In this document: piece after piece, positions 1,616 to 60,421 of the stretch
Numbering within the stretch: the first letter of the stretch is position 1
Layout of the letters: every line of letters begins with the position of its first letter
Assembly (NCBI GenBank): GCA_964617815.1
Contig: CAZTXY010000001.1
Span: 128 to 64,127, forward strand
From: an uncultured Candidatus Saccharibacteria bacterium
Lineage (GTDB): Bacteria; Patescibacteriota; Doudnabacteria; UBA920
Reading direction: 5' to 3'
Length of the DNA stretch: 64,000 bases
Notes under the pieces: generated by a model
Databases searched by the model: none
What the model was told of the DNA's origin: nothing
What the model saw: only the letters and a program-made list of their open reading frames with translations
Position numbers and translations under genes: made by a program

Positions 1616-2542
1616 TTATTTTAAAAATTTATTTTTATTTTTTACATGCTCTGCAAAAGTCTTGCTATATACAACCTCTCCTGATGGTTGTTTATGCAAA
1701 AAATAATAGTAATCAGTTTTTGTAGGAGCCAAAACAGCTTGTAAACTTGAAAGTGAAGGGTTAGCAATTGGCCCAGGTGGAAGCCCTCTATTTATATAAG
1801 TATTATATGCTGACTTAATTCGTGTATCACTCAAAAGCGGACTAGGATCATTTTTACCGCTTACATAGTTTATAGTCGCATCGCTCTCTAGTCCTTGACC
1901 AATTAAAAGCCTGTTATAAAATATTCCCGCTACAATTGAGCGTTCTTCTTGAAGCGCCAATTTAGCTTCCTGGCCCAGACCTGCAATATTTCTCCCTGTC
2001 TCTTTTTCTAAAATAGAAGCAAGGGTGACTAGCTCGTGAATTGTTAAGCCCCGCGCGTCAGAGTTTAAACTTAAATTATTATACCCTGGTATAATAAATG
2101 TTTGATCTGCAGTTTGTGTTACATCGCGTTTTGCAATATTCCATTTTACTAAAAAATTATTAAGAAATTTTCTAACTACTTCATCTGCGGTTGCTGGTTT
2201 ATTAACTAGATAAGTATCAGGAAATAAATACCCCTCCAAAGACTGTTCTAGTGCTAACTTCGATAAATACTCATACTCTTGTAATAACTGCGGGTTTCCA
2301 AGGGTATTTTTTAAATCTGTTTCCGAAACAACATTTTTTTCAGACAAATATTTTTTAATTTGAAAAGTGTCCCAACCTTCAATAATAGTAATCTTCTGTT
2401 GCTCTTTTGCTGATATTGACTGAACTTTAGACTGCGATTGTTTATGCTGATACCAAACGAGGCCACCAAAAGTAGCAGTAATAGCAGCTAATATAATCGC
2501 AATAATAAAAACTCTAGTATACATATAACTAGTATACCACAA
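1616..2542 (-). CDS. mltG: endolytic murein transglycosylase MltG (YceG-like)
   Basis: N-terminal TM segment, then YceG-like motifs (IAGIFYNRL, GLPPGPIANP, YYYF). Confidence 0.75.
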   Translation of the reverse strand: MWYTSYMYTRVFIIAIILAAITATFGGLVWYQHKQSQSKVQSISAKEQQKITIIEGWDTFQIKKYLSEKNVVSETDLKNTLGNPQLLQEYEYLSKLALEQSLEGYLFPDTYLVNKPATADEVVRKFLNNFLVKWNIAKRDVTQTADQTFIIPGYNNLSLNSDARGLTIHELVTLASILEKETGRNIAGLGQEAKLALQEERSIVAGIFYNRLLIGQGLESDATINYVSGKNDPSPLLSDTRIKSAYNTYINRGLPPGPIANPSLSSLQAVLAPTKTDYYYFLHKQPSGEVVYSKTFAEHVKNKNKFLK

Positions 2543-2567
2543 GGCTATTTTTTAACACTAGCTTAAT

Positions 2568-3008
2568 TTAATCACCAATAATTTTAACGAAAAAATTACG
2601 CGCTCTTCCTCCATCAAACTCAATAAAAAATAGGCTTTGTTTCTCGCCCATAAGTAATTTGCCGTTGTCTAAAGAAAGCGTTTCTGAGGAGCCAAGCAAA
2701 AATGACTTCACGTGAGCATGCCCATTACTTCGCTCATTTAGGGCTACCTTTTGTCGGACCTCAAACAAGTCATGTCCATAACTCATTTCAAGAGGCACAA
2801 GCCGATATAACATTTTCATTATATCCTGCAAAAGTAAAGGCTCATTGTGGTTAAGCCGAATACTTGCTGTTGTATGTGGACTGTAAACAACAACGATGCC
2901 ATTTGTAATATTAGAAGCTGTGACAGCAGAAAGCACCTGCTCTGTTACTACCACCAGCTCAAATTGTCGTTTTGTTTCTAATTCTACTTTTTGTAAAAAA
3001 GTTTTCAT
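2568..3008 (-). CDS. YjbQ/UPF0047 family protein (secondary thiamine-phosphate synthase-like)
   Basis: 146 aa; conserved HTTASI, HxxEP and HGHAHVK motifs of the YjbQ family. Confidence 0.7.
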   Translation of the reverse strand: MKTFLQKVELETKRQFELVVVTEQVLSAVTASNITNGIVVVYSPHTTASIRLNHNEPLLLQDIMKMLYRLVPLEMSYGHDLFEVRQKVALNERSNGHAHVKSFLLGSSETLSLDNGKLLMGEKQSLFFIEFDGGRARNFFVKIIGD

Positions 3009-16352: not shown

Positions 16353-16389
16353 ATTGGTATTATATCTAAATTTTGAAGATAAAAGAAGA

Positions 16390-16415
16390 GCCGGCGTCCC
16401 TCGTGGAACGCCGGC
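16390..16415 (-). terminator. hairpin terminator downstream of the island-A gene
   Basis: Stem GCCGGCGT/ACGCCGGC followed by a T-rich run on the minus strand. Confidence 0.5.
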
Positions 16416-16438
16416 ATACTCGAACCTACTAACAATGA

Positions 16439-17479
16439 TTACCGCGCCGGAATACGTCCGGCAGAAACAAGCAATCGCTTGAGCAGTTTGTTCGTCTGAG
16501 CGCCAATCTTATTGGATCTCCGAACCTCAGCCAGGATCTCCTTGAGAATCACGTCTTGGCTGATGAACTCTTCGAGCTCAGGAGGCTCCACTGCCAAGTT
16601 GCGACTGGTCGGAGCAGAATCTGCAGACAACACCCCAGTGGCAGTGTCGATGATCCTCTGGGCGTCCGAACCTGCCGGCACTTCGAGTTCACTTGTGCTG
16701 AAACGTAAGTCAACTCGCTCATTGAAAAATGCCTTAGCCAAATCTGCGAAGAGCAAGCGCCTTTCGATCAGCGTATTAATCATCATCACTTCAATGGCCG
16801 TCCGATGAACAGGATCCATATCCCATCCATTGTTTACCAGTAGTTGCATAAACAGCTGACCCCTCTCCAAGTCAATGCCCACGATGTACATGGTCGGCTC
16901 GATGAATCCCCGGTCTCGAGTTTGCTTGGTAAGCTCTTCGCACACCTCATCATAGAGACGCGGAAAACTTATATACCGGAGAGTTCCTTGATACCCTCCG
17001 AAGTCAAGGGGTTTATCTAGCGGCTTATACTGGGGATACTCCGCGAAGTTATGCACGAACTGAAACAGCATGCTCAGTTGTGGGAGACTAGTCATCTGAC
17101 TTTTGATCTTGTTGACCTCCACGATCCAGTCTGGATCATTAGTCGATGACCCCTCTGGTACTGGAGGTAAAGTATAGATCATGCCGCGGACTTTGCCCTT
17201 AGCCTTATGACCATCACCACAACAATACCCAATGTTCCCTGACGTAGCCCCCACAACATGGCAAAACCTTGTCAGCATGGCATTCCCGTGTGTTAAGACA
17301 TTGAGGTGATCTGGATCGCTCTTCTCCTGAGCACGAAAATCAGACTCAAAATCGTCTAGAGCTATTCCAATTTCAGGCGCAAACTTCGCAGTTAGCGCGT
17401 TGATGTTTGAATTCCCCCCTTTCAGATTTTCCCCCAAAATCTGCGTCGCCGCCAAGACTATTCCGGATTTATTGCTCAC
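16439..17479 (-). CDS. hypothetical protein in GC-rich island A
   Basis: 346 aa ORF at about 50% GC versus under 40% for flanking genes; GGGAGG RBS 6 nt upstream; Cys-rich patch CHVVGATSGNIGYCCGDGH; no family recognised. Confidence 0.5.
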   Translation of the reverse strand: MSNKSGIVLAATQILGENLKGGNSNINALTAKFAPEIGIALDDFESDFRAQEKSDPDHLNVLTHGNAMLTRFCHVVGATSGNIGYCCGDGHKAKGKVRGMIYTLPPVPEGSSTNDPDWIVEVNKIKSQMTSLPQLSMLFQFVHNFAEYPQYKPLDKPLDFGGYQGTLRYISFPRLYDEVCEELTKQTRDRGFIEPTMYIVGIDLERGQLFMQLLVNNGWDMDPVHRTAIEVMMINTLIERRLLFADLAKAFFNERVDLRFSTSELEVPAGSDAQRIIDTATGVLSADSAPTSRNLAVEPPELEEFISQDVILKEILAEVRRSNKIGAQTNKLLKRLLVSAGRIPAR

Positions 17480-30846: not shown

Positions 30847-30896
30847 GTCGCTACTCGCACACCTCGAGACACTTGGAAAATCCTGTAGGAGGGAAG

Positions 30897-31445
30897 ATGA
30901 ACACAAGCCATCAAGAAGGCGTTGTGCGGTTGCAGAGCAGGCTGGGATTGCTTGGATTTAACTACTTTCCCCCGAAAAGCGGAAGGGATGACAAGAAGCA
31001 CTGCTTTTCAAAATCTGTCGGGCCTGCCCGCCACAAGACTGCAGTCCGAATTTGGCTGAAGCTTTTCAACGAAGGCTTCGGCAGCAAAGAACGGTATGCC
31101 GCTTCTATCATTCTGGTCGGCAATGGCTGGGGAGAACTCTGGAAGTTTAAATCCTTGGCCTGGAGCAAAAATCCTGAGGGAAATCTCAAACGCTTGTTTG
31201 CTAAAGCAAAGCTAGCAAGCAAATTTCTAGGCTCCCAGATTTACTGCCCCACTTTGGGGCACGGCTTGGGAAAAGGGATGAAACCCATTCTCGTCGCAGA
31301 CAGACGGCGACACATGACCATTGCCTGGCGCTGTTGCCACGCTGGATGTCAGTCGACTTTCAGGCTTGAAAGCAAACTCTCCAATGCAATCATGGTTCAG
31401 ACCGACAAGGCCTTTCTGCTTGAACTAGCGACCACTGGCGTCTAA
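30897..31445 (+). CDS. hypothetical Cys/His/Trp-rich protein in GC-rich island B
   Basis: 182 aa from the ATG at 30897, preceded by AGGAGG at 30887-30892; the ORF-track start at 30873 is TTG. About 50% GC; contains WRCCHAGC and YCPTLGHG. A stop-free 190-codon frame is improbable by chance. Confidence 0.5.
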   Translation: MNTSHQEGVVRLQSRLGLLGFNYFPPKSGRDDKKHCFSKSVGPARHKTAVRIWLKLFNEGFGSKERYAASIILVGNGWGELWKFKSLAWSKNPEGNLKRLFAKAKLASKFLGSQIYCPTLGHGLGKGMKPILVADRRRHMTIAWRCCHAGCQSTFRLESKLSNAIMVQTDKAFLLELATTGV

Positions 31446-31451
31446 CGCAAA

Positions 31452-31485
31452 GCGCCACAGCCTACCAACTGGTAGGTTGTGGCGC
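31452..31485. terminator. bidirectional terminator
   Basis: 15-bp stem GCGCCACAGCCTACC/GGTAGGTTGTGGCGC with one G-U pair, 4-nt loop, immediately after the island-B stop. Confidence 0.6.
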
Positions 31486-31497
31486 TAAAATTTTATA

Positions 31498-32211: not shown

Positions 32212-32258
32212 TTATAAATAATATCATATAGGCAAAAAAATGCCAAAATAATGAAAAT

Positions 32259-32283
32259 GCAGGGAGCTTATTCAGCTCCCTGC
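32259..32283 (-). terminator. terminator after the island-C operon
   Basis: Perfect stem GCAGGGAGC/GCTCCCTGC followed by a T-run on the minus strand. Confidence 0.55.
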
Positions 32284-32313
32284 ATTAAGCGCGCGTAGTT
32301 TGCGCAAAAAAAT

Positions 32314-32562
32314 CTAGTGCGTTTCGCCCCGAAGGCGGACGACCCGAATGACGTGTGGCTTCACGTAATTCGGGTGACGATGACAGCCTGGGCAACCGAG
32401 CTGTAGTTCATACATCATGCCCATTTCTCGCTTTAGGCCTTCGGCCAAAGTAATGACTTCCTGTCTGGAGAACTCCTCAGGATCTAGCCTGGCGGTGAAC
32501 TCTCGTCCTGGCTGAAGCGCGATACTAACCCGCAAAATATCGCAAGGTGTTGCAAGTGACAT
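32314..32562 (-). CDS. small CPGC/His-motif protein, island-C paralogue 1
   Basis: 82 aa; AGGAGG RBS 5 nt upstream; C-terminal GCPGCHRHPNYVKPHVIRV; paralogous to the upstream gene. Confidence 0.5.
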   Translation of the reverse strand: MSLATPCDILRVSIALQPGREFTARLDPEEFSRQEVITLAEGLKREMGMMYELQLGCPGCHRHPNYVKPHVIRVVRLRGETH

Positions 32563-32576
32563 GGTTTCCTCCTGGC

Positions 32577-32855
32577 TTAACAGACATAGTCTGTGCCGGA
32601 TATGCTTGTGGCCACAGCCAGGTTTAAAACTTCCCGCCTGACCACCAGTACGTGATTAATCGGCTGGCCCTCATGACAACTACACCCAGGGCAACCGCCG
32701 CCGTGTTCCGTGACGCAGAACTCACGAGCAAGTTCTGCTTGCAAGCGCGCAATACGTTCAGCCGTAAACTGGTACCGCAACTCTGCGGCAAAGCTTTGGC
32801 CTTCGCGCAAAGTCCGAGCAAGAGCCATAACCCTTGCTGGCGTCATCAATTCCAT
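32577..32855 (-). CDS. small CPGC/His-motif protein, island-C paralogue 2
   Basis: 92 aa; GGGAGG RBS; C-terminal GGGCPGCSCHEGQPINHVLVV aligns with paralogue 1 (TP...L, GCPGC, HV..V.R). Confidence 0.5.
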   Translation of the reverse strand: MELMTPARVMALARTLREGQSFAAELRYQFTAERIARLQAELAREFCVTEHGGGCPGCSCHEGQPINHVLVVRREVLNLAVATSISGTDYVC

Positions 32856-32903
32856 GAGCCAACCTCCCTTCTCTCAAATGTCCTCCGTCAAAATCGATCC
32901 CAA

Positions 32904-32932
32904 AGTCTAGCACACTTACGTTAGTTAATCAA
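32904..32932 (-). promoter_or_regulatory. putative promoter for the island-C operon (TTGATT-17-TAGACT)
   Basis: Read on the minus strand between the terminator hairpin and the paralogue-2 start. Confidence 0.4.
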
Positions 32933-32940
32933 GGCAAACT

Positions 32941-32968
32941 AAAACGCCTTGGCAAGCCAAGGCGTTTT
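32941..32968. terminator. bidirectional terminator
   Basis: Perfect 12-bp stem AAAACGCCTTGG/CCAAGGCGTTTT; serves the pilin gene above it. Confidence 0.6.
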
Positions 32969-32982
32969 AGACTAACTATAAT

Positions 32983-36253: not shown

Positions 36254-37226
36254 GACCTATTAACAACGCCGGCTCCATAAGAGTATTTACACGCTTAACC
36301 AAAGCGTCTAACTCTTGTTCATAGTAATCGGCTAAAAATAAAAATGTCTGAGAGAATTGCCCAGAAGATTCTGCAGCCTCTACCATTTGACTAAAGGTTA
36401 AAGGCCACAAACTTTTTTCTAGATACAAAGAACCTGCAACCGGTCTCCCTTCTTTAATTTCTGCTGATATTTTAAAAAGATTACTTTTATACCGGCTTGG
36501 TATTTTACTGTTTGCAACTGTTTGAAGGGCAAAAAAAATATCAGAGCTATAAATTAAACTAATACCTAACATTCGTGCTATATAACTTGTGTAATAAAAA
36601 CGGAGACAGTCACCGGCAATCCATAGATGTAATATAAAATTAAAAATAACTTTAACAGCGGGTGTTTTAATTAAAATAAATATTGCGACACCGATTAAAG
36701 CTACCAAACTCACAATTAACACTAGCCAATGTTCCGAAATTAAGTTTGTAACAAAGATAAGCATCCTTGTCGTCCAGGGTAGAGTGACATGCAAACTCGC
36801 AAACACAGGCATAATTTTGGGAAAAAGGTATCCAAGCAATAAACCACCTAACACAATAGTTGCAAAACAAATCACTGCTGGATATAAAAATATCCCGACA
36901 ATTTTTTGTTGTAAAATTTTTTGTTTTTCCAACAATCCTGCAGCATAATCTAAACACTCGACTAAATGGCCAGAGTTTTCACCAACTTCCAAAATTGCAA
37001 ACACTGTGGGGTTTACTCTCGTGCTTACTTTTTCTAAAGTTACAGATAAAAGCTCACCTCTCGCCACTGCCTTAGTTAATCTGTCAAAACTATTTTTTTG
37101 TTTGGGCTCGCTGCTTTTTGCTAAAAACTCAAGAGCCAAACCAAGGGGTAACCCAGACTTAAGCAATAACGCCAAGCGTTTGCATAAAATTACTACATGA
37201 CTTCCCCGTAACTTACCGTTGTTCAT
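36177..37226 (-). CDS. pilC: type IV pilus assembly platform protein PilC (GspF family)
   Basis: GspF-domain motifs and 3 TM helices; 349 aa. Confidence 0.75.
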   Translation of the reverse strand: MNNGKLRGSHVVILCKRLALLLKSGLPLGLALEFLAKSSEPKQKNSFDRLTKAVARGELLSVTLEKVSTRVNPTVFAILEVGENSGHLVECLDYAAGLLEKQKILQQKIVGIFLYPAVICFATIVLGGLLLGYLFPKIMPVFASLHVTLPWTTRMLIFVTNLISEHWLVLIVSLVALIGVAIFILIKTPAVKVIFNFILHLWIAGDCLRFYYTSYIARMLGISLIYSSDIFFALQTVANSKIPSRYKSNLFKISAEIKEGRPVAGSLYLEKSLWPLTFSQMVEAAESSGQFSQTFLFLADYYEQELDALVKRVNTLMEPALLIGLGLLVGFIAVSIITPIYGITQSFRP

Positions 37227-38328
37227 ACAAAACCCTTTCCAGTTCCATTGTCGTAGTTAGGCCATCTCTAATTTTTTGTTGCCCATCACTTTGCATTGTG
37301 GTCATCCCAAAGCGTAGCGCTAATTCTTCAACCACCCCAAAAGATTGTTTTTTGGCAATGGCTTCCGCAAGTAAACCGTCAACAGCTAAAGTTTCATAGA
37401 TTCCTACTCGACCAGAAAAACCACTCAGAGAACAAATACTGCATGTATCTACTAAGCCTTGCCCAAAACAATACGAACACAACTTTCTTACTAAACGTTG
37501 GCCAACAACAAGCTTCAAAGTTGCAGCAATTAAATACGGAGCTATTCCCATATCTGCCAAACGTACAATACTACTTAGAGCATCAGTCGTATGAAGTGTC
37601 GAAAGTACTAAATGCCCTGTTAGGGCAGCCTGTATAGCCAAACTTGCAGTCTCACTATCGCGTATCTCACCGACCATAATAATATCCGGGTCCTGTCTAA
37701 GCACACTTCTTAAACCGCCAGCGAAACCAAAACCTCTGGCTGGAGAGACTGGAATTTGGCGCACTCCGCCAATTGCATATTCAACAGGGTCTTCTATAGT
37801 TATAATCGAAGACTCCGCAGTGTTTAACATTTGGAGTAGAGCGTAAAGTGTTGTGGTCTTACCGCTTCCAGTTGGTCCAGTTGCAATAATAAGTCCTGAG
37901 CGCATGTCCAGCGCAGACAAAACTCGCCGCTGATCAGACTCAGACATTCCCAACTCAAAAAGGCTTAAAGCAGTATTATCGGTACGCAAAACTCTGAGCA
38001 CAGCGTTCTCTCCATAATGTGTTGGCATGATTGATACTCGCACATCAAATTCATAATTTGGAGCAACAGAGTATCGGAAACGCCCGTCCTGAGGAAGACG
38101 ATGTTCGTCTATTCGAAGACCGGCTAAATTCTTAATCCGATTAATTACTTCTGTATGAGTGTATGTAGCTAGTGGCTCGACATCCCGAAGTAACCCATCC
38201 ACGCGCAAGCGAATACGCACACACGTATTTGTGGGATCAATATGTATGTCTGAGGCCTTATACTCCTTGGCAGTTGTGAGTAATTCTTTAACGATATCAG
38301 TTTCTTGCATGGCTAAACTATAAACCAC
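37213..38328 (-). CDS. pilB: type IV pilus ATPase (GspE/PilB family, short form)
   Basis: Walker A GPTGSGKTTTLY, Asp and His boxes, C-terminal tetracysteine CSYC...CSIC. Confidence 0.8.
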   Translation of the reverse strand: MVYSLAMQETDIVKELLTTAKEYKASDIHIDPTNTCVRIRLRVDGLLRDVEPLATYTHTEVINRIKNLAGLRIDEHRLPQDGRFRYSVAPNYEFDVRVSIMPTHYGENAVLRVLRTDNTALSLFELGMSESDQRRVLSALDMRSGLIIATGPTGSGKTTTLYALLQMLNTAESSIITIEDPVEYAIGGVRQIPVSPARGFGFAGGLRSVLRQDPDIIMVGEIRDSETASLAIQAALTGHLVLSTLHTTDALSSIVRLADMGIAPYLIAATLKLVVGQRLVRKLCSYCFGQGLVDTCSICSLSGFSGRVGIYETLAVDGLLAEAIAKKQSFGVVEELALRFGMTTMQSDGQQKIRDGLTTTMELERVLYEQR

Positions 38329-38382
38329 AAGAGTTCAAATAAAGTTAAAGAAATTATCAATTTTTTCTAAAGATTTAAACAA

Positions 38383-38419
38383 AGACCCCCAACGGAAGGG
38401 AGTCTTCCGTTGGGGGTCT
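38383..38419. terminator. bidirectional rho-independent terminator
   Basis: Perfect 16-bp stem AGACCCCCAACGGAAG/CTTCCGTTGGGGGTCT with AT-rich flanks. Confidence 0.65.
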
Positions 38420-38881: not shown

Positions 38882-40381
38882 TTAAACAGATTGGCGAAAT
38901 GGTAACATTTTTTTTATCATTACCAAATCATTTTTTTGCCAAAAATTTAAAAGTACCAAGACAACAAAGTACACAGTTACTCCAATAACTCCCATTCCAA
39001 TTAGATTTGCCAATTCACGAACAAAGCTCTGTGCAACTTGATCAAGCCAATTTTGCCAAATACTTGAGTCTTGCACAAAATATACCACGACACCCATAAC
39101 AGCGGCCGCTAAAGCTGGTCGCCACACAAAACGAGCAAAGGAAAAATTAGTTAATTTTGTTTTAACAAAATAAAAATACAATGCGCCCTGAATAAACTCT
39201 GAGGCTACTGTCACACTTGCGGCTGCCACAATTCCATAGCGCGGTAAAAGAATTAAATTAGCGGCAATGTTAATGACTACATTTATCACGGTCACTACCA
39301 CGGCCCATTTAGTTAGTTGGGAAATAACCAAGGCATTGGCCACAATATAAGTTAACAGTATGGCGGGAGCCCAAATTAAAACCGACAAAACCGAACTTGC
39401 GCCCAAAAATTCTTCGCCTGCCAAAATAAATATAATCGATTTTGCCAGCAACATACCACCAACAGCCAACGGCAAAGCTAAGGCCAACAATAAACGCAAA
39501 TATTTTTCAACTATGGCTCTGACCTCAGAAATCTGCCCCTTGGCCACCAAACCCGCAAACACAGGATATAAAGTAAATGAAACTATCGATGGAAAAAAAG
39601 CAACAAGGTCAAAAAATCGGTACGCACTAGCATAGAGTCCAGTAGCTTCCGCCCCTAACATTTTATAAATAATAACCATATCAATTCGGTTATAGATAGT
39701 ACTAAAACCAACAAGCAACGCAAAGGGAAGAGCTGCGCGCATAATTTGTTTGGCAAAACCAAAGTCAAAATATCTAAATGCATTCCAAATTTCCGCACGC
39801 GGGATGTAAACACGCACAAACCGGCGGTATAAAAACAATCCAATAATTCCAAAAATTAACTGGTTGCTGACTAAAAACACAATGTATTTACCCAACACAA
39901 TGGTCAATGTGATAATGACCACGTTAACCATGGAATTCATAAAGTTTATCAGCGCAACTTTTTTTAAATCCTGATGTGCGCTCATCACGGCCAAATACGG
40001 ATAAGTTAACCCGGCAAAAACAAAACCTAAACCAGAAACAGCAATCGCGCCCATCACCACTGGCTCATACCCATTCCCAAAGGCAATCGCCATCATTAGA
40101 GCATAGACCACAGTTGCCAACACAACTTCAACGGCAAAAAAGTTTTGTAAATAATATTTAGCGCGAGTTGGCTCTTCGCTAATTTTTTTGATAATAAACT
40201 GCTGAAGACCAAAGTCAATTATTACTCCAAAGATAGTTGTGAACGATAAAACAAACTGATGCTGTCCGGTACCATGCGGGCCTAAATATCTAAGCAAAAA
40301 AATATACGCTACGGCAAGTAACGCAATAGCGATGGTGCGCGAAAGCGACAACCAGAAAATATTTTGTGAGGGTGTAGCCAT
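38882..40381 (-). CDS. oligosaccharide flippase (MOP/Wzx family)
   Basis: 499 aa, about 12-14 TM helices typical of polysaccharide-biosynthesis flippases. Confidence 0.65.
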   Translation of the reverse strand: MATPSQNIFWLSLSRTIAIALLAVAYIFLLRYLGPHGTGQHQFVLSFTTIFGVIIDFGLQQFIIKKISEEPTRAKYYLQNFFAVEVVLATVVYALMMAIAFGNGYEPVVMGAIAVSGLGFVFAGLTYPYLAVMSAHQDLKKVALINFMNSMVNVVIITLTIVLGKYIVFLVSNQLIFGIIGLFLYRRFVRVYIPRAEIWNAFRYFDFGFAKQIMRAALPFALLVGFSTIYNRIDMVIIYKMLGAEATGLYASAYRFFDLVAFFPSIVSFTLYPVFAGLVAKGQISEVRAIVEKYLRLLLALALPLAVGGMLLAKSIIFILAGEEFLGASSVLSVLIWAPAILLTYIVANALVISQLTKWAVVVTVINVVINIAANLILLPRYGIVAAASVTVASEFIQGALYFYFVKTKLTNFSFARFVWRPALAAAVMGVVVYFVQDSSIWQNWLDQVAQSFVRELANLIGMGVIGVTVYFVVLVLLNFWQKNDLVMIKKMLPFRQSV

Positions 40382-40411
40382 GAGCCTTTATTATAGCAAA
40401 ATTAGCCCTAT

Positions 40412-40440
40412 TTGACCAAAATCAAGATATGTGGTAGAAT
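40412..40440 (+). promoter_or_regulatory. near-consensus sigma70 promoter for the island-D gene (TTGACC-17-TAGAAT)
   Basis: Hexamers seen directly; leaves a 5' UTR of about 100 nt before the ATG at 40548. Confidence 0.55.
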
Positions 40441-40547
40441 TGGAACTATGAATTCGTCGCCTGTTTTGGGGCTTTAGCATGCCTACGCTAAACCTTGAAA
40501 CAGCCGAAATCTGAAATGTAGTTACAACCAAATAGGAGCGATAGACT

Positions 40548-40862
40548 ATGAATGGTCTGAGCACTGTCGAAATCGATGGCCGAAGGGTCATCGAAATCAC
40601 TGACTTCAACAAGTCCAAGGCGATCGCCGCCCCGATCCATCTCGCCATCACGGCGGCCAAGATGGGCATCGAGACCCAGAGCGAGAGCCATCATCCGGCC
40701 CACCCGGAAGCAAAGGTCATTTCGTACCCGGTGTGGATGGCAGGATGGGGGGGCAACATGAAGGTTTTCCCGATGACGGCCCCGCAGTTGATCGACTATC
40801 TGCGTCGTGGCCGTGGCGAGCACTCGCCCGACCACACGACCGTCGTCGCCGCGACGGTCTAG
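40548..40862 (+). CDS. hypothetical protein in GC-rich island D
   Basis: 104 aa, about 58% GC; AGGAG RBS 7 nt upstream; no family recognised; minus-strand ORFs here are composition artefacts. Confidence 0.5.
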   Translation: MNGLSTVEIDGRRVIEITDFNKSKAIAAPIHLAITAAKMGIETQSESHHPAHPEAKVISYPVWMAGWGGNMKVFPMTAPQLIDYLRRGRGEHSPDHTTVVAATV

Positions 40863-40888
40863 ACCGAAACCGCGCAACCCGCGCACAC

Positions 40889-40920
40889 AGGCCACCCCGA
40901 CACTTTGTCTGGGGTGGCCT
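40889..40920 (+). terminator. terminator of the island-D gene
   Basis: GC-rich stem AGGCCACCCCGACA/TGTC(T)GGGGTGGCCT followed by TTCTCATTT. Confidence 0.55.
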
Positions 40921-40940
40921 TTCTCATTTATAATCAAAAA

Positions 40941-40973
40941 AAGCGGCACCCTTTGTTGCAAAGGGTGCCGCTT
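40941..40973. terminator. bidirectional terminator
   Basis: Perfect 15-bp stem AAGCGGCACCCTTTG/CAAAGGGTGCCGCTT, A-run before, T-rich after. Confidence 0.6.
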
Positions 40974-40988
40974 CTATAATTTCTCAAT

Positions 40989-45692: not shown

Positions 45693-45734
45693 AAACACTA
45701 ATTTATGAATTTAAAAAAATAGATAAAATGAAAA

Positions 45735-45783
45735 CGCGGCACTTGTGCTTTCCGTCCGAAGACAGGAAAGACACGAGTACCGC
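45735..45783 (-). terminator. terminator of the island-E operon (UUCG-type tetraloop hairpin)
   Basis: Imperfect long stem with a TTCG loop on the minus strand followed by a T-rich run, just after the 45800 stop. Confidence 0.45.
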
Positions 45784-45799
45784 GCATCGCGACTAGCGA

Positions 45800-46990
45800 T
45801 TAGTTGTTGGGCTTCATAGCCCTGTTCCAGCGGCTGCCGCTGGAGTTGTTCCGAACCTGCCCACCACCGTCGGTGGGAGCAAGAGCGCGTTGTCCTCCGT
45901 TGTTACGCCGATCCCCGCGGCGCTCATCCGGAGCGACCACAGGATCGTCCTGATGCTTGATCGGCTTGGTGTCAGGACTTTGCCCATTGTTACGGATGAT
46001 CACCGGAACGAGAACCCAATTTCGGGTTACTCGCGGCTCAAAAGTTGCACACTCCCTCTCCCCAAAGGAGACTGTGATCACGCCATCTTCCCAGACAGCC
46101 GATCCGTTTCGATCCAGCGCAGTTGTCTTGTTGCGCTTGACCTCAACGGTTTGAGTGTGATTGTCAGGCCAGCTGACCTTGAGTTGGCCTTTGTCGTGCG
46201 AAGGATTTGTCGCATTCGCGACACGATCGCCAGCAGCTGTGCTGGTGGTCGAAAGCAGTACTGCCTTCCCACGCTCACCCTTCGAGCTACCGGCGTACGA
46301 AATCACGCCGGCGATGACCGTCTTCACCACAGTGCCCACGATCCCACCGACAGCCTTTTCGCGGCCAGAAGCCTCGCCCTTATATGAAATCTCAGGGCAA
46401 TCCGGACACGGAACGGTCACTGTTGTGGTCACCGGTTTTGGAGTCTCCGGTGTCGGCGGCAATGGTACCTCGGTAGTCCAAGTGTTCTCACACTTGTCCT
46501 CCCAATAGTAAATCCTCTTGCCGTCCCGATCCTCGAACTTGATGAGGGTCGGCGGTTCGTCCACGACACAGGGTGTCGCTTCCGGCTCAGGCGGGGTTGT
46601 AACCCACTTGAGCCGATTGAACGTCACACCGCCAGTGGAAGTTCGACATCCCTCCAAGTAACCAAGGGTCCAAGAACCTGGATCAAGGTAGACCCAGGCT
46701 TCGGGGTTGTCGCCCAGGTAGATCACCCGAGCGATTTTTCCGAATTCGTTCCAGGCCGGGAGCTTCCGGTATTTCTCCGGAATCTCCTTGACCTGGACAC
46801 GCTTGTACCCCTCGAACACCGACTTATCACCGGTGTACTTGGGGTGCGAGAAGACCTCGCTGGAGAGCTTCGTCATCTCATAGCGATCGCTACGGATGAG
46901 AGCCTTGCGATTCTGCGCATGCGCTGCCTGGGCCGTGAGGCCCAGGAGAAGCGCCGTGAGAAGAACGAGGGAAAAGATCACCTTGTTCAT
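45800..46990 (-). CDS. hypothetical secreted protein in GC-rich island E
   Basis: 396 aa, about 58% GC; signal peptide MNKVIFSLVLLTALLLGLTAQAAHA; Pro/Thr-rich linker; CPDCPE; C-terminal low-complexity R/N/G-rich tail. Confidence 0.45.
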   Translation of the reverse strand: MNKVIFSLVLLTALLLGLTAQAAHAQNRKALIRSDRYEMTKLSSEVFSHPKYTGDKSVFEGYKRVQVKEIPEKYRKLPAWNEFGKIARVIYLGDNPEAWVYLDPGSWTLGYLEGCRTSTGGVTFNRLKWVTTPPEPEATPCVVDEPPTLIKFEDRDGKRIYYWEDKCENTWTTEVPLPPTPETPKPVTTTVTVPCPDCPEISYKGEASGREKAVGGIVGTVVKTVIAGVISYAGSSKGERGKAVLLSTTSTAAGDRVANATNPSHDKGQLKVSWPDNHTQTVEVKRNKTTALDRNGSAVWEDGVITVSFGERECATFEPRVTRNWVLVPVIIRNNGQSPDTKPIKHQDDPVVAPDERRGDRRNNGGQRALAPTDGGGQVRNNSSGSRWNRAMKPNN

Positions 46991-47005
46991 TTCGTCTCCT
47001 TGGGC

Positions 47006-47734
47006 TCAGCGGCCCTCAACCAAATTTGCATCGTTCGCCGCCTCCAAAATCATGCGGAGGCTAGCGAAGAGAGTTTCTTGCCCATAGTAGTTCCGGGTCT
47101 TTGGCAGACGCACACCCAGTTGGGCCAGCGCGCCAATTGCCGGACCTCCTGTCTGCGCCGAAAAGGTGGAGCTCTGAGAGCCCCCCCACGGAATCCTCAA
47201 CTGTCCTGACCCCGTGGTAAATTCAAACACCTCGGCGTCAGATAGTGACTTTCCCGTGATCTCACCGCGCTGATTGCGCAGTGTGATTTCGACGTAAACT
47301 CGGTATGCGACCTTACGCGAGTTCTGCCCGCGCAAAGAGAAACTCTCCTGCACCGGCACCGAACTGACGTTCGGCTGAATACGCATAATGAGCTCGGCGT
47401 ACTTACGCTCCGCAACTGGTCGGCTGTCACCGAAAGCCCCCGCTTCGATCAAGCGGTTCACCAGTTTCTCGGCCATTGCCGAGTTCTGGAAACCACTAAC
47501 CTCTACGAAGACCGGAGTGAGCTGCTGAGGCGCGGATTGCGCCGGAGCATTAGGAACCGGCTGAGATGCCGGAACCGGCGCTGGCTGCGACGTCGCATTC
47601 GGGTCACCCTGCGCGGGACCCCAACGACGAGCCGCTTCTTCGCGGGTCATCAACTTGCGGCCCGACTGGGCCAAAGCGATCGGTGCCAACACGGCAACGA
47701 TCAGGAACGCGACAAAAATCTTGGTGGTGCTCAT
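47006..47734 (-). CDS. hypothetical secreted protein in GC-rich island E
   Basis: Start moved to the internal ATG (MSTTKIFVAFLIVAVLAPIALAQ signal peptide), which has an AAGGAG RBS 7 nt upstream; Pro/Gln-rich linker; about 58% GC. Confidence 0.45.
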   Translation of the reverse strand: MSTTKIFVAFLIVAVLAPIALAQSGRKLMTREEAARRWGPAQGDPNATSQPAPVPASQPVPNAPAQSAPQQLTPVFVEVSGFQNSAMAEKLVNRLIEAGAFGDSRPVAERKYAELIMRIQPNVSSVPVQESFSLRGQNSRKVAYRVYVEITLRNQRGEITGKSLSDAEVFEFTTGSGQLRIPWGGSQSSTFSAQTGGPAIGALAQLGVRLPKTRNYYGQETLFASLRMILEAANDANLVEGR

Positions 47735-47963
47735 GGATCTTTCTCCTTGTGTATCTGCGTGATGTATGGCCATGAACAGCCATGGGGACGACTAAATATT
47801 AACTAATCGCTTAGTTATCATTAGCCCTCCTCAGAGCTGTCAATGAACTTTCCAACTGATTGTGCTTTTAGGCACATTCCTGCCCCGCCCTCGCGGCGGG
47901 ACAAGATCTGCATGAAAGCTGTAACTTAATAGTATACTCTTCTACTTACATTCCTGTCGAGGC

Positions 47964-59933: not shown

Positions 59934-59953
59934 ACAAAGTTAAAAAAACTTTC

Positions 59954-59977
59954 CCCGCACGACACGCGTCGTGCGGG
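59954..59977. terminator. bidirectional terminator
   Basis: Perfect 10-bp GC stem CCCGCACGAC-ACGC-GTCGTGCGGG with A-run before. Confidence 0.55.
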
Positions 59978-59992
59978 AGTCTTTGAATCACT

Positions 59993-60421
59993 CTAGGTGA
60001 AAACAATCTCTTCGCGCCACTCGGACAAGCCGGCTTCAAAAATACTTGCCCGCTTCTCGATCTGCCAAAGAGGCACGCCATGAATATTGCGGCTTGCGGC
60101 CTCAAGTGGGTTACAAACCAAGCGAATGACTCGGCAGTGAGCCTGGCGAGATTTTGCTGCCTCCCAGTAACGCTCAGCCTCCCAGAGCATGACGTTGGTG
60201 TTGTCAACCACGATCAGCGGGGCACCTGCGTAAAGGATCTCCAAGAACTTGTCCCAGCAAGTCCCATGTGCATCGGGCAAGAGGCTCGAGCAGAACCTGA
60301 ACTCTCTGTTTTCATCATAGAAGTATTCGTCAGCAGAGCAAACGATTGCTTCCGGAAAATTCTGGGCCACATAGTGTGACTTCCCAGAACCTGAGATCCC
60401 GCGCATAATAACGATGGTCTG
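59993..60421 (-). CDS. P-loop kinase of the AAA_33 type (predicted nucleotide/polynucleotide kinase)
   Basis: Walker A GISGSGKS, LIVVDNTN Walker-B-like motif; about 52% GC; start moved to MQTIV, which has AGGAGG 7 nt upstream. Confidence 0.55.
   Translation of the reverse strand, partial: QTIVIMRGISGSGKSHYVAQNFPEAIVCSADEYFYDENREFRFCSSLLPDAHGTCWDKFLEILYAGAPLIVVDNTNVMLWEAERYWEAAKSRQAHCRVIRLVCNPLEAASRNIHGVPLWQIEKRASIFEAGLSEWREEIVFT

Follow-up and report, generated by a model that had tools for sequence, protein, structure and literature searches.

The 64,000-nucleotide (nt) stretch of contig CAZTXY010000001.1 analysed here (hereafter the window) has an average GC content of 39%. Its segment 40517-40994, at 56% GC, raises the question whether such a departure marks a gene, on which strand that gene would lie and how it came to its present place. 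An earlier note had called this locus Island D and had proposed for it a plus-strand gene of 104 amino acids (aa) belonging to no recognisable family, with its own promoter, a leader of about 100 nt and two tandem terminators. Our analysis indicated that Island D is probably a lineage-restricted, compositionally foreign and self-contained transcription unit, inserted in antisense orientation in a conserved cell-envelope gene cluster.

The coding sequence of the 104-aa protein was placed at 40548-40862 on the plus strand (61% GC; GC content at third codon positions, GC3, 0.80). A putative Shine-Dalgarno sequence AGGAG (40534-40538) lies 9 nt 5' of the ATG, and AGGAG or GAGG occupies the same place in the relatives. 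Three homologs of the protein (P0001 to P0003), 66-72% identical to it, were found. In the codon alignment of these four alleles about twice as many differences fell at third as at other codon positions (e.g., 17/17/33 at positions 1/2/3), and the ratio of nonsynonymous to synonymous substitution rates (dN/dS) was 0.22-0.35, while in the DNA alignment of the alleles every indel had a length divisible by three. These substitution and indel patterns indicate that the plus-strand open reading frame (ORF) is a real protein gene under purifying selection, in agreement with the earlier note, and both the ORF and the leader are conserved in relatives.

The position of the gene is constant. On all 11 homolog-bearing contigs it lies between the gene of a Polysacc_synt flippase and that of a 614/622-aa secreted orphan protein, both encoded on the opposite strand. 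The next-closest flippases are only 54-57% identical. In five of these more distant relatives (L093, L094, L096, L098, and L100) the flippase gene comes directly after the homolog of the 614-aa gene, on one strand and with a gap of only 3-70 nt, an arrangement that justifies the description of the locus as an island. The gap of L093 and L094 contains, in this order, a terminator hairpin, a T-run, an extended -10 box (TGATACAAT or TGCTACAAT), 6 nt and the ATG. In the window these ancestral parts are kept at the two edges of the island, namely a hairpin (H4, described below) with a minus-strand T7 run at one, and TGCTATAAT followed by 8 nt and the flippase ATG at the other. Because both parts are recognisable there, about 535 nt would have been inserted between the ancestral terminator and the flippase promoter, and the comparison with the relatives puts the approximate boundaries of this lineage-specific insertion (promoter, leader, ORF and own terminator) at ~40399-40935. 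A transposable element, a miniature inverted-repeat transposable element or an integron cassette was considered and rejected, since neither terminal inverted repeats nor a target-site duplication were detected at the insertion ends and the island is single-copy, with no second copy in the window.

A sixth relative, L099, carries a different insert of ~1 kb at the identical site (1939-3000). It contains an antisense zf-HC2 gene of the anti-sigma-factor type (Pfam E = 1e-9; 2964 to 2581) with its own terminator (2544-2517). This insert resembles Island D in its site, between the terminator of a 616-aa gene and a leaderless flippase promoter, in its orientation and in having its own terminator, but differs in its size and in its unrelated gene. 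The site therefore appears to accept insertions repeatedly. The insert contains in addition ~500 nt of unassigned GC-rich sequence. A similarity of the ORF motif YPVWMAGW to the L099 gap (tblastn E = 0.1-0.2) was considered as the trace of a degraded homolog and rejected, as it did not rise above chance in a profile search against a 1.35-Mb six-frame background.

The composition of the ORF contrasts with that of its surroundings, GC3 being 0.73-0.80 in all four alleles, whereas seven neighbouring genes have values of 0.29-0.37. Of 40 four-fold degenerate sites of the ORF, 17 differ between the window and L001, as compared with a fraction of 0.436 over 1,253 such sites in the neighbouring genes; the age of the gene therefore equals that of the split separating these lineages. 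When third-position changes were polarised by majority rule, 21 GC-to-AT versus 5 AT-to-GC changes were counted in the ORF and 27 versus 20 in the flippase gene. This excess implies that the gene is losing GC, as expected of a foreign gene in the course of amelioration, and the same counts led us to reject the idea that its GC3 is not decaying at all.

The alternative that the high GC content is actively maintained in a native gene, whether through selection acting on mRNA or DNA or through a mutational bias of the locus, draws on the same numbers. GC3 has stayed at 0.73-0.80 in four alleles despite a background level of four-fold divergence. A neutral two-state model based on the 1,253 neighbouring sites predicts a GC content at four-fold sites (GC4) of just 0.59-0.70 from an ancestor of 0.8-1.0, whereas 0.80 and 0.70 were observed (40 sites). 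The mRNA of the ORF has a mild excess of structure, and GC-rich orphan genes are kept elsewhere in the clade, for instance at 45800-47773 (GC3 0.63-0.69), with GC-rich counterparts in L093 and L096. On the other hand, with 40 four-fold sites only, the excess over the model amounts to ~1.5-2 standard errors. The 4:1 excess of GC-to-AT changes places the composition off equilibrium, and the unit is absent from five relatives with an empty gap and has no homolog elsewhere. We consider maintenance in a native gene unlikely on this balance, and the GC4 excess would reflect either an extremely GC-rich donor or some force that slows the decay.

The alleles themselves offer another interpretation, in which the ORF is an allelic cassette under balancing selection, such as a strain-specific compatibility or immunity factor, that is swapped by recombination via invariant flanks. 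The four alleles are discrete, 25-30% apart without intermediates, and invariant blocks lie on the 5' and 3' sides of the variable ORF. From sample to sample an allele does not vary, and among contigs with identical ORF alleles tracts of the flanking genes differ by 7-15%. Contig L008 joins a flippase gene, promoter and hairpin of the L011 type (identical from -800 to -27, counted from the ORF start, with just two differences at the far end of the range compared) to an ORF and 3' end of the L007 type (no differences from -75 to +497), which places a crossover within the conserved leader. Two alleles, P0002 and P0003, co-occur in the metagenome JGI 3300045379. Recombination is, however, not specific to the ORF: among L001-L011, mosaic tracts of ~600 nt that are 15-20% divergent abut difference-free stretches (e.g., L008 1406-2067), and they do so inside neighbouring genes as well. 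Furthermore, the ORF and its neighbours are equally divergent at synonymous sites, the dN/dS of the ORF is well below 1, and the co-occurring alleles may belong to two co-existing species. A cassette of this kind is thus quite improbable, and we read the L008 pattern as general mosaic recombination between co-occurring relatives rather than the work of a dedicated cassette mechanism.

Transcription of the inserted unit would start from the promoter TTGACC-17-TAGAAT (40412-40440, plus strand), which matches the consensus at 10 of 12 positions, has a TG-n extension and is base-for-base identical in all five sequence variants. The earlier note had ranked it among the best sigma70 matches of the window. 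The promoter sequence is present as described but is not exceptional, as 44 sites of the window match at least 10 of 12 positions and five score above it; a scan of 10 kb returned 31 sites versus 22.3 +/- 4.7 in shuffled sequences. The match is therefore good rather than outstanding, and the weight of the predicted promoter comes from its conservation. In 15 kb compared between the window and L001 at 84.5% identity, the longest perfect run (191 nt, 40272-40463) spans the first 36 codons of the flippase gene, both divergent promoters and the first 17 nt of the predicted leader, and conservation over these 15 kb is highest in the stretch made up of the promoter and the initial ~50 nt of the leader.

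The flippase promoter (40390-40418, minus strand), with the extended -10 box TGCTATAAT at 40398-40390 and a -35-like TGGTCA at 40418-40413, is likewise invariant in all variants. The -35 boxes of the two promoters overlap on opposite strands at 40412-40418 (TTGACC at 40412-40417, TGGTCA at 40418-40413). A polymerase bound at one promoter could exclude binding at the other and so couple the expression of the island gene and the flippase gene. The flippase ATG at 40381 lies 8 nt past the -10 box TATAAT, and the flippase genes of the distant relatives (54-57% identical proteins) show the same geometry of TACAAT, 6-8 nt and ATG. The corresponding regions are 40379-40398 (minus strand) in the window, 4980-5003 in L093, 4978-5003 in L094 and 3006-3045 in L099. 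The flippase mRNA is probably leaderless. A similar geometry was seen at the gene starts 26637, 16352, and 62501 of the window, and several operon-first genes of the window have a leaderless geometry. Since the flippase geometry recurs both in relatives and at these operon-first genes, leaderless mRNAs are probably normal in this organism; literature searches on the translation of leaderless mRNAs, or on orphan genes of high GC content, in Saccharibacteria or Patescibacteria brought up nothing of direct relevance.

The leader of the island gene would be 101 nt long if transcription starts near 40447, a position set by promoter geometry only. It contains a 19-bp hairpin (40458-40506, plus strand; minimum free energy -22.7 kcal/mol) with an invariant apical stem UUUAGC/GCUAAA (40473-40478 / 40487-40492) that closes the 8-nt loop AUGCCUAC (40479-40486). 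The z-score of the hairpin is -4.4 in the window and -3.0 to -4.1 in the relatives. Relative to the other four leader variants, the window has changed on both arms together: two pairs were switched in a compensatory way, one from AU to GC and one from CG to UA, and two internal mismatches were repaired. The cells of the hairpin were paired in 90.8% of cases versus 28-43% when the partner columns were slid, and the covariation score was reached in 21 of 500 shuffles. The presumption of an RNA structure in the leader, for which folding and covariation analysis had been proposed, was thereby supported, and the data favour a selected structure, albeit from five variants only. In the window and 15 related loci, the only match of a covariance model built on the leader hairpin was the hairpin itself, and DNA motif scans of viral contigs for this hairpin and the 3' hairpins returned none.

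As to what the leader does, a ligand-sensing riboswitch or a transcription attenuator would fit its length of ~100 nt and the strong conservation of its first ~50 nt with a stable hairpin. Its 3' half, in contrast, is poorly conserved, and the structure is a single simple hairpin without a multi-helix junction. It is followed by no U-tract, and it leaves the Shine-Dalgarno sequence, ~30 nt further downstream, uncovered. Rfam gave no match at gathering threshold in the whole 64-kb window, in which no tRNA genes were detected either; the leader had no match even at E <= 10, and the terminator hairpins had sub-threshold matches only. With no U-tract, an accessible Shine-Dalgarno sequence and no Rfam match, an intrinsic attenuator or a known riboswitch is very unlikely. 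It seems possible, if somewhat short of probable, that the hairpin acts post-transcriptionally, by stabilising the mRNA or by binding a protein sequence-specifically and so controlling translation. A candidate leaderless upstream ORF of nine codons (MNSSPVLGL*, 40448-40477, plus strand) begins with an ATG 7 nt past the -10 box TAGAAT and ends with a UAG stop inside the apical stem. Its ATG and stop are kept in five of five variants, while codons 6-8 vary non-synonymously. Its translation might melt the hairpin, which is possible but speculative.

The 3' region folds at -75.2 kcal/mol (z = -10.5) into four plus-strand hairpins. H1 (40838-40859), a GC-rich hairpin of 9 bp, is formed by the last codons and ends just before the stop codon (40860-40862). 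It has no substitution in the four alleles, synonymous sites included, although third positions elsewhere differ by ~40%. H2 (40872-40884), a small hairpin of the form CGCG-CAACC-CGCG in the 3' untranslated region, is invariant too. H3 (hairpin 40889-40920), an inverted repeat that shows three compensatory pairs in L001, forms together with the following UUUCUCAUUU the predicted intrinsic terminator of the island gene (40889-40930, plus strand). Overall, H1, H2, and H3 show little or no change among the alleles, and this extends to the synonymous sites in the last eight codons. H4 (40936-40975; hairpin 40941-40973; z = -7.4) is a perfect stem of 15-17 bp, whose sequence is different in every lineage and which is always a long perfect hairpin.

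The combination of a GC-rich hairpin and a U-run that characterises intrinsic terminators was found on the plus strand at 40889-40920 and on the minus strand at 40975-40939. In the latter case the minus-strand reading runs from 40975 to 40939 and then into U7, while the plus strand continues with CUAUAAUUUC after the hairpin. H4 is accordingly predicted to be the terminator of the convergent 614-aa gene, given that its U-run is on the minus strand, that a terminator at this position also occurs in relatives without the island and that it follows the terminator style of this genome. It may also serve as a back-up or bidirectional terminator for plus-strand transcripts. Of the two tandem terminators in the earlier note, both hairpins thus exist, one GC-rich and one with a perfect 15-17 bp stem, but the second has its T-run on the minus strand and belongs mainly to the 614-aa gene; the invariant H1 and H2 had been missed. 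Other long perfect-stem terminators lie on the minus strand at 38353-38391 (17 bp, z = -6.9) and 32941-32972 (14 bp, z = -6.3), both conserved in L001. A long perfect stem appears to be the usual style of this genome, into which H4 fits.

Structured RNAs often account for the GC-rich islands of AT-rich genomes, and the invariant 3' hairpins might suggest that the GC-rich segment is a structured non-coding RNA, the 104-codon ORF being a chance by-product of its high GC content. All six frames are unusually open at the locus, and the ORF mRNA is somewhat more structured than its synonymous-codon shuffles, although this signal is mild (z -1.1 to -3.5). The codon-periodic substitutions, the dN/dS of 0.22-0.35 and the in-frame length of all indels speak against such an RNA, and so does the lack of an Rfam match. 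A search for conserved RNA structure inside the ORF by RNAalifold found no net covariation support in the ORF body (covariation term +0.75, with many broken pairs). A non-coding RNA is therefore highly improbable, and we retain the protein gene.

The opposite strand carries an ORF of 153 aa (40488-40949, minus strand), which is the gene called publicly: the public protein collection contains for this genome the exact 153-aa product, P0130 (on a 147,678-bp NCBI contig), and not the 104-aa product. This antisense ORF (153-157 aa, 40949/40961 to 40488) is the longer of the two, and its frame is open in three of the four alleles. In the fourth, L011, an in-frame stop interrupts it, and most substitutions fall at position 1 of its codons (e.g., 33/17/17), so that it fails the coding tests that the plus-strand ORF passes. 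Moreover, its start would fall inside the terminator of the 614-aa gene, it has no Pfam match, gene callers picked the plus-strand ORF in all relatives, and open antisense frames are expected across from genes of high GC3. Pfam searches with the translations of the five frames of the locus other than that of the 104-aa ORF gave no match. The chance that the true gene is on the opposite strand, a possibility which the earlier note had raised against its own proposal, is slight indeed; we judge the antisense ORF spurious, and at this locus the annotation of the window's own genome appears to be on the wrong strand. An assembly chimera or a contaminant, which the abrupt shift of composition at the start codon might suggest, is already refuted for practical purposes by the same arrangement on at least 11 contigs from independent ENA, JGI, and Logan assemblies.

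The 104-aa protein (11.3 kDa, isoelectric point ~7) is predicted to be soluble and has no transmembrane or hydrophobic segment. Its description as a member of no recognisable family has held: neither the single protein nor all four members together gave a match in Pfam, NCBIfam, PHROGs, PADLOC or PDB sequences. The best profile matches were far below threshold, namely RRF (E = 0.17; 12 bits, cut-off 29.7) and BimA (E = 0.045; 12.7, cut-off 800). Single-sequence and profile queries of 5.8e9 proteins returned no homologs beyond the same three. When 1.84e9 representatives were searched exhaustively with HMMER, the only additions were P0004 and P0005, which were rejected as spurious repeat proteins. 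Neither the protein nor the island had a match in 185,579 GTDB species genomes, IMG/VR, or plasmid and phage collections. The GTDB genomes, JGI metagenomes, and IMG/VR yielded nothing beyond the already known contig of the L001 type, and blastn of the island against plasmids and phages gave no match. Homologs outside the four syntenic alleles were thus not detectable. Two AlphaFold2 runs predicted the same order beta-beta-alpha-beta-beta-beta-alpha, with a predicted local distance difference test score (pLDDT) of only 49 and 46, and Foldseek found no match with these low-scoring models (pLDDT only 46-49). The homology and structure searches suggested in the earlier note therefore yielded the three syntenic homologs and, with models of this low confidence, no structural match. 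The product may be a soluble 11-kDa alpha/beta protein, and our best guess, made with low confidence, would make it a small regulatory or binding protein of the cytoplasm that has no relation to its neighbours.

Further GC-rich islands in the window were located at 45715-47798, 30882-31488, 32248-32921, 16381-16776, and 59944-60327. The six ORFs of the first four had no match in Pfam, and a 151-aa ORF of the last matches AAA_33. The genes of 396 and 255 aa at 45800-47773 have a GC3 of 0.63-0.69 in the window as well as in L001. The 396-aa protein is fast-evolving (dN/dS 0.37) and has weak homologs in L093 and L096, which are GC-rich as well. The clade thus seems to have had GC-rich orphan genes for a long time. 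The closest relative of the window's PilB-like ATPase (37213-38328, minus strand) among the 185,579 GTDB species genomes is only 50% identical and comes from a Candidatus Saccharibacteria metagenome-assembled genome; the lineage seems to have no close representative in that collection.

Several observations weigh against a foreign, self-contained inserted unit. Its horizontal origin is deduced from composition alone, because the searches returned no donor or homolog, and the GC4 values above those of the neutral model leave room for selection on GC content, as other GC-rich orphan genes persist across the clade. The transcription start, the use of the promoter and the function of the terminator are predicted from consensus matches and conservation. 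Recombination is pervasive, so that the extreme conservation of the flanks could partly reflect homogenisation instead of constraint. The leader is represented by five variants only; the two compensatory pairs are adjacent, occur in one lineage and possibly arose in a single event, and L007 has a cluster of uncompensated changes in the 5' arm, which weaken the stem without abolishing it. The low-confidence structure models (pLDDT 49 and 46) give no clue to function.

With these reservations, the history of Island D as an inserted transcription unit can be outlined as follows. The ancestor of a narrow clade would have acquired the unit once, ahead of the divergence of the four alleles, and from an unsampled donor of very high GC content. 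The unit would have been inserted in antisense orientation between the terminator and the flippase promoter, splitting the envelope operon. Transcription would begin at ~40447 from an extended -10 sigma-70 promoter that stands back-to-back with the leaderless flippase promoter and shares its -35 region. The 5'-proximal hairpin would act after transcription, and translation of the nine-codon leaderless upstream ORF may melt it. The mRNA would be translated from the AGGAG site and end at 40889-40930, and the gene would have been losing GC slowly since the transfer. A more elaborate and rather doubtful version is that the gene came from a very GC-rich organism (ancestral GC3 at least 0.9), for example the high-GC host of an episymbiotic bacterium of the Candidate Phyla Radiation (CPR), and has since been domesticated, with a native promoter and hairpin of extreme conservation in front of it. 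Several deeply divergent alleles of it would be kept, which recombination in the invariant flanks shuffles among co-occurring strains and which act as a strain-specific interaction or compatibility factor, and the GC-rich mRNA with its invariant 3' hairpins could itself contribute to the function.

The observation holds, and it adds one more small orphan gene of modest interest. For a public genome it puts right a gene call made on the wrong strand, and it illustrates how gene callers are misled by GC-rich genes in AT-rich genomes. It offers a clean and datable case in which a complete transcription unit would have entered a terminator/promoter gap of roughly 30 nt and split a conserved envelope operon, at a site used independently by an unrelated gene in another lineage. 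It also adds a small candidate cis-acting RNA element, conserved and with covariation support, for a phylum with almost no characterised gene regulation. The protein itself is one more small protein without a family, and its wider significance is at present limited.

Among known systems, leader-peptide translational attenuation, as in ermC, cat-86, and cmlA, shares with Island D a short upstream ORF (here of nine codons) that overlaps the 5' arm of a leader hairpin. It differs in that the hairpin of Island D leaves the main ribosome-binding site free, that the upstream ORF has no Shine-Dalgarno sequence and would need leaderless translation, and that positions 6-8 of the peptide are unconserved. 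The 5'-terminal stem-loops that stabilise mRNAs, such as those of the E. coli ompA 5' untranslated region and of the B. subtilis aprE and ermC leaders, likewise place a stable hairpin near the 5' end of a long leader, upstream of the Shine-Dalgarno sequence, and compensatory changes are common to both. The predicted hairpin of Island D differs in that it begins ~10 nt from the predicted 5' end and is nearly invariant in sequence as well as in structure.

With horizontally acquired ORFans or genomic islets Island D shares its atypical GC3, narrow distribution, lack of homologs, apparent ongoing amelioration and a raised dN/dS (0.29 versus 0.05-0.13 in the neighbours). Unlike these, it is only ~0.5 kb long, it comes with neither an integrase or tRNA nor direct or terminal inverted repeats, and its promoter and leader have a host-like GC content (~40%) and are more conserved than the gene.

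Phage morons are reportedly autonomous extra transcription units in lambdoid prophages. Island D differs from them in its neighbours, which are pilus, flippase, S8 peptidase, and sortase genes, in having no match in PHROGs, IMG/VR or INPHARED, in its location on the chromosome of a probable member of the Patescibacteria/CPR, and in its orientation antisense to an operon that it splits. In common with them it is a single small ORF with, as judged from consensus and conservation, its own promoter and its own intrinsic terminator, it is inserted between genes that are adjacent in relatives, and its composition is atypical (GC3 0.80 versus ~0.3). With the phage context absent, Island D is not filed as a moron, and a moron-like autonomous unit is the picture of it that is best supported.

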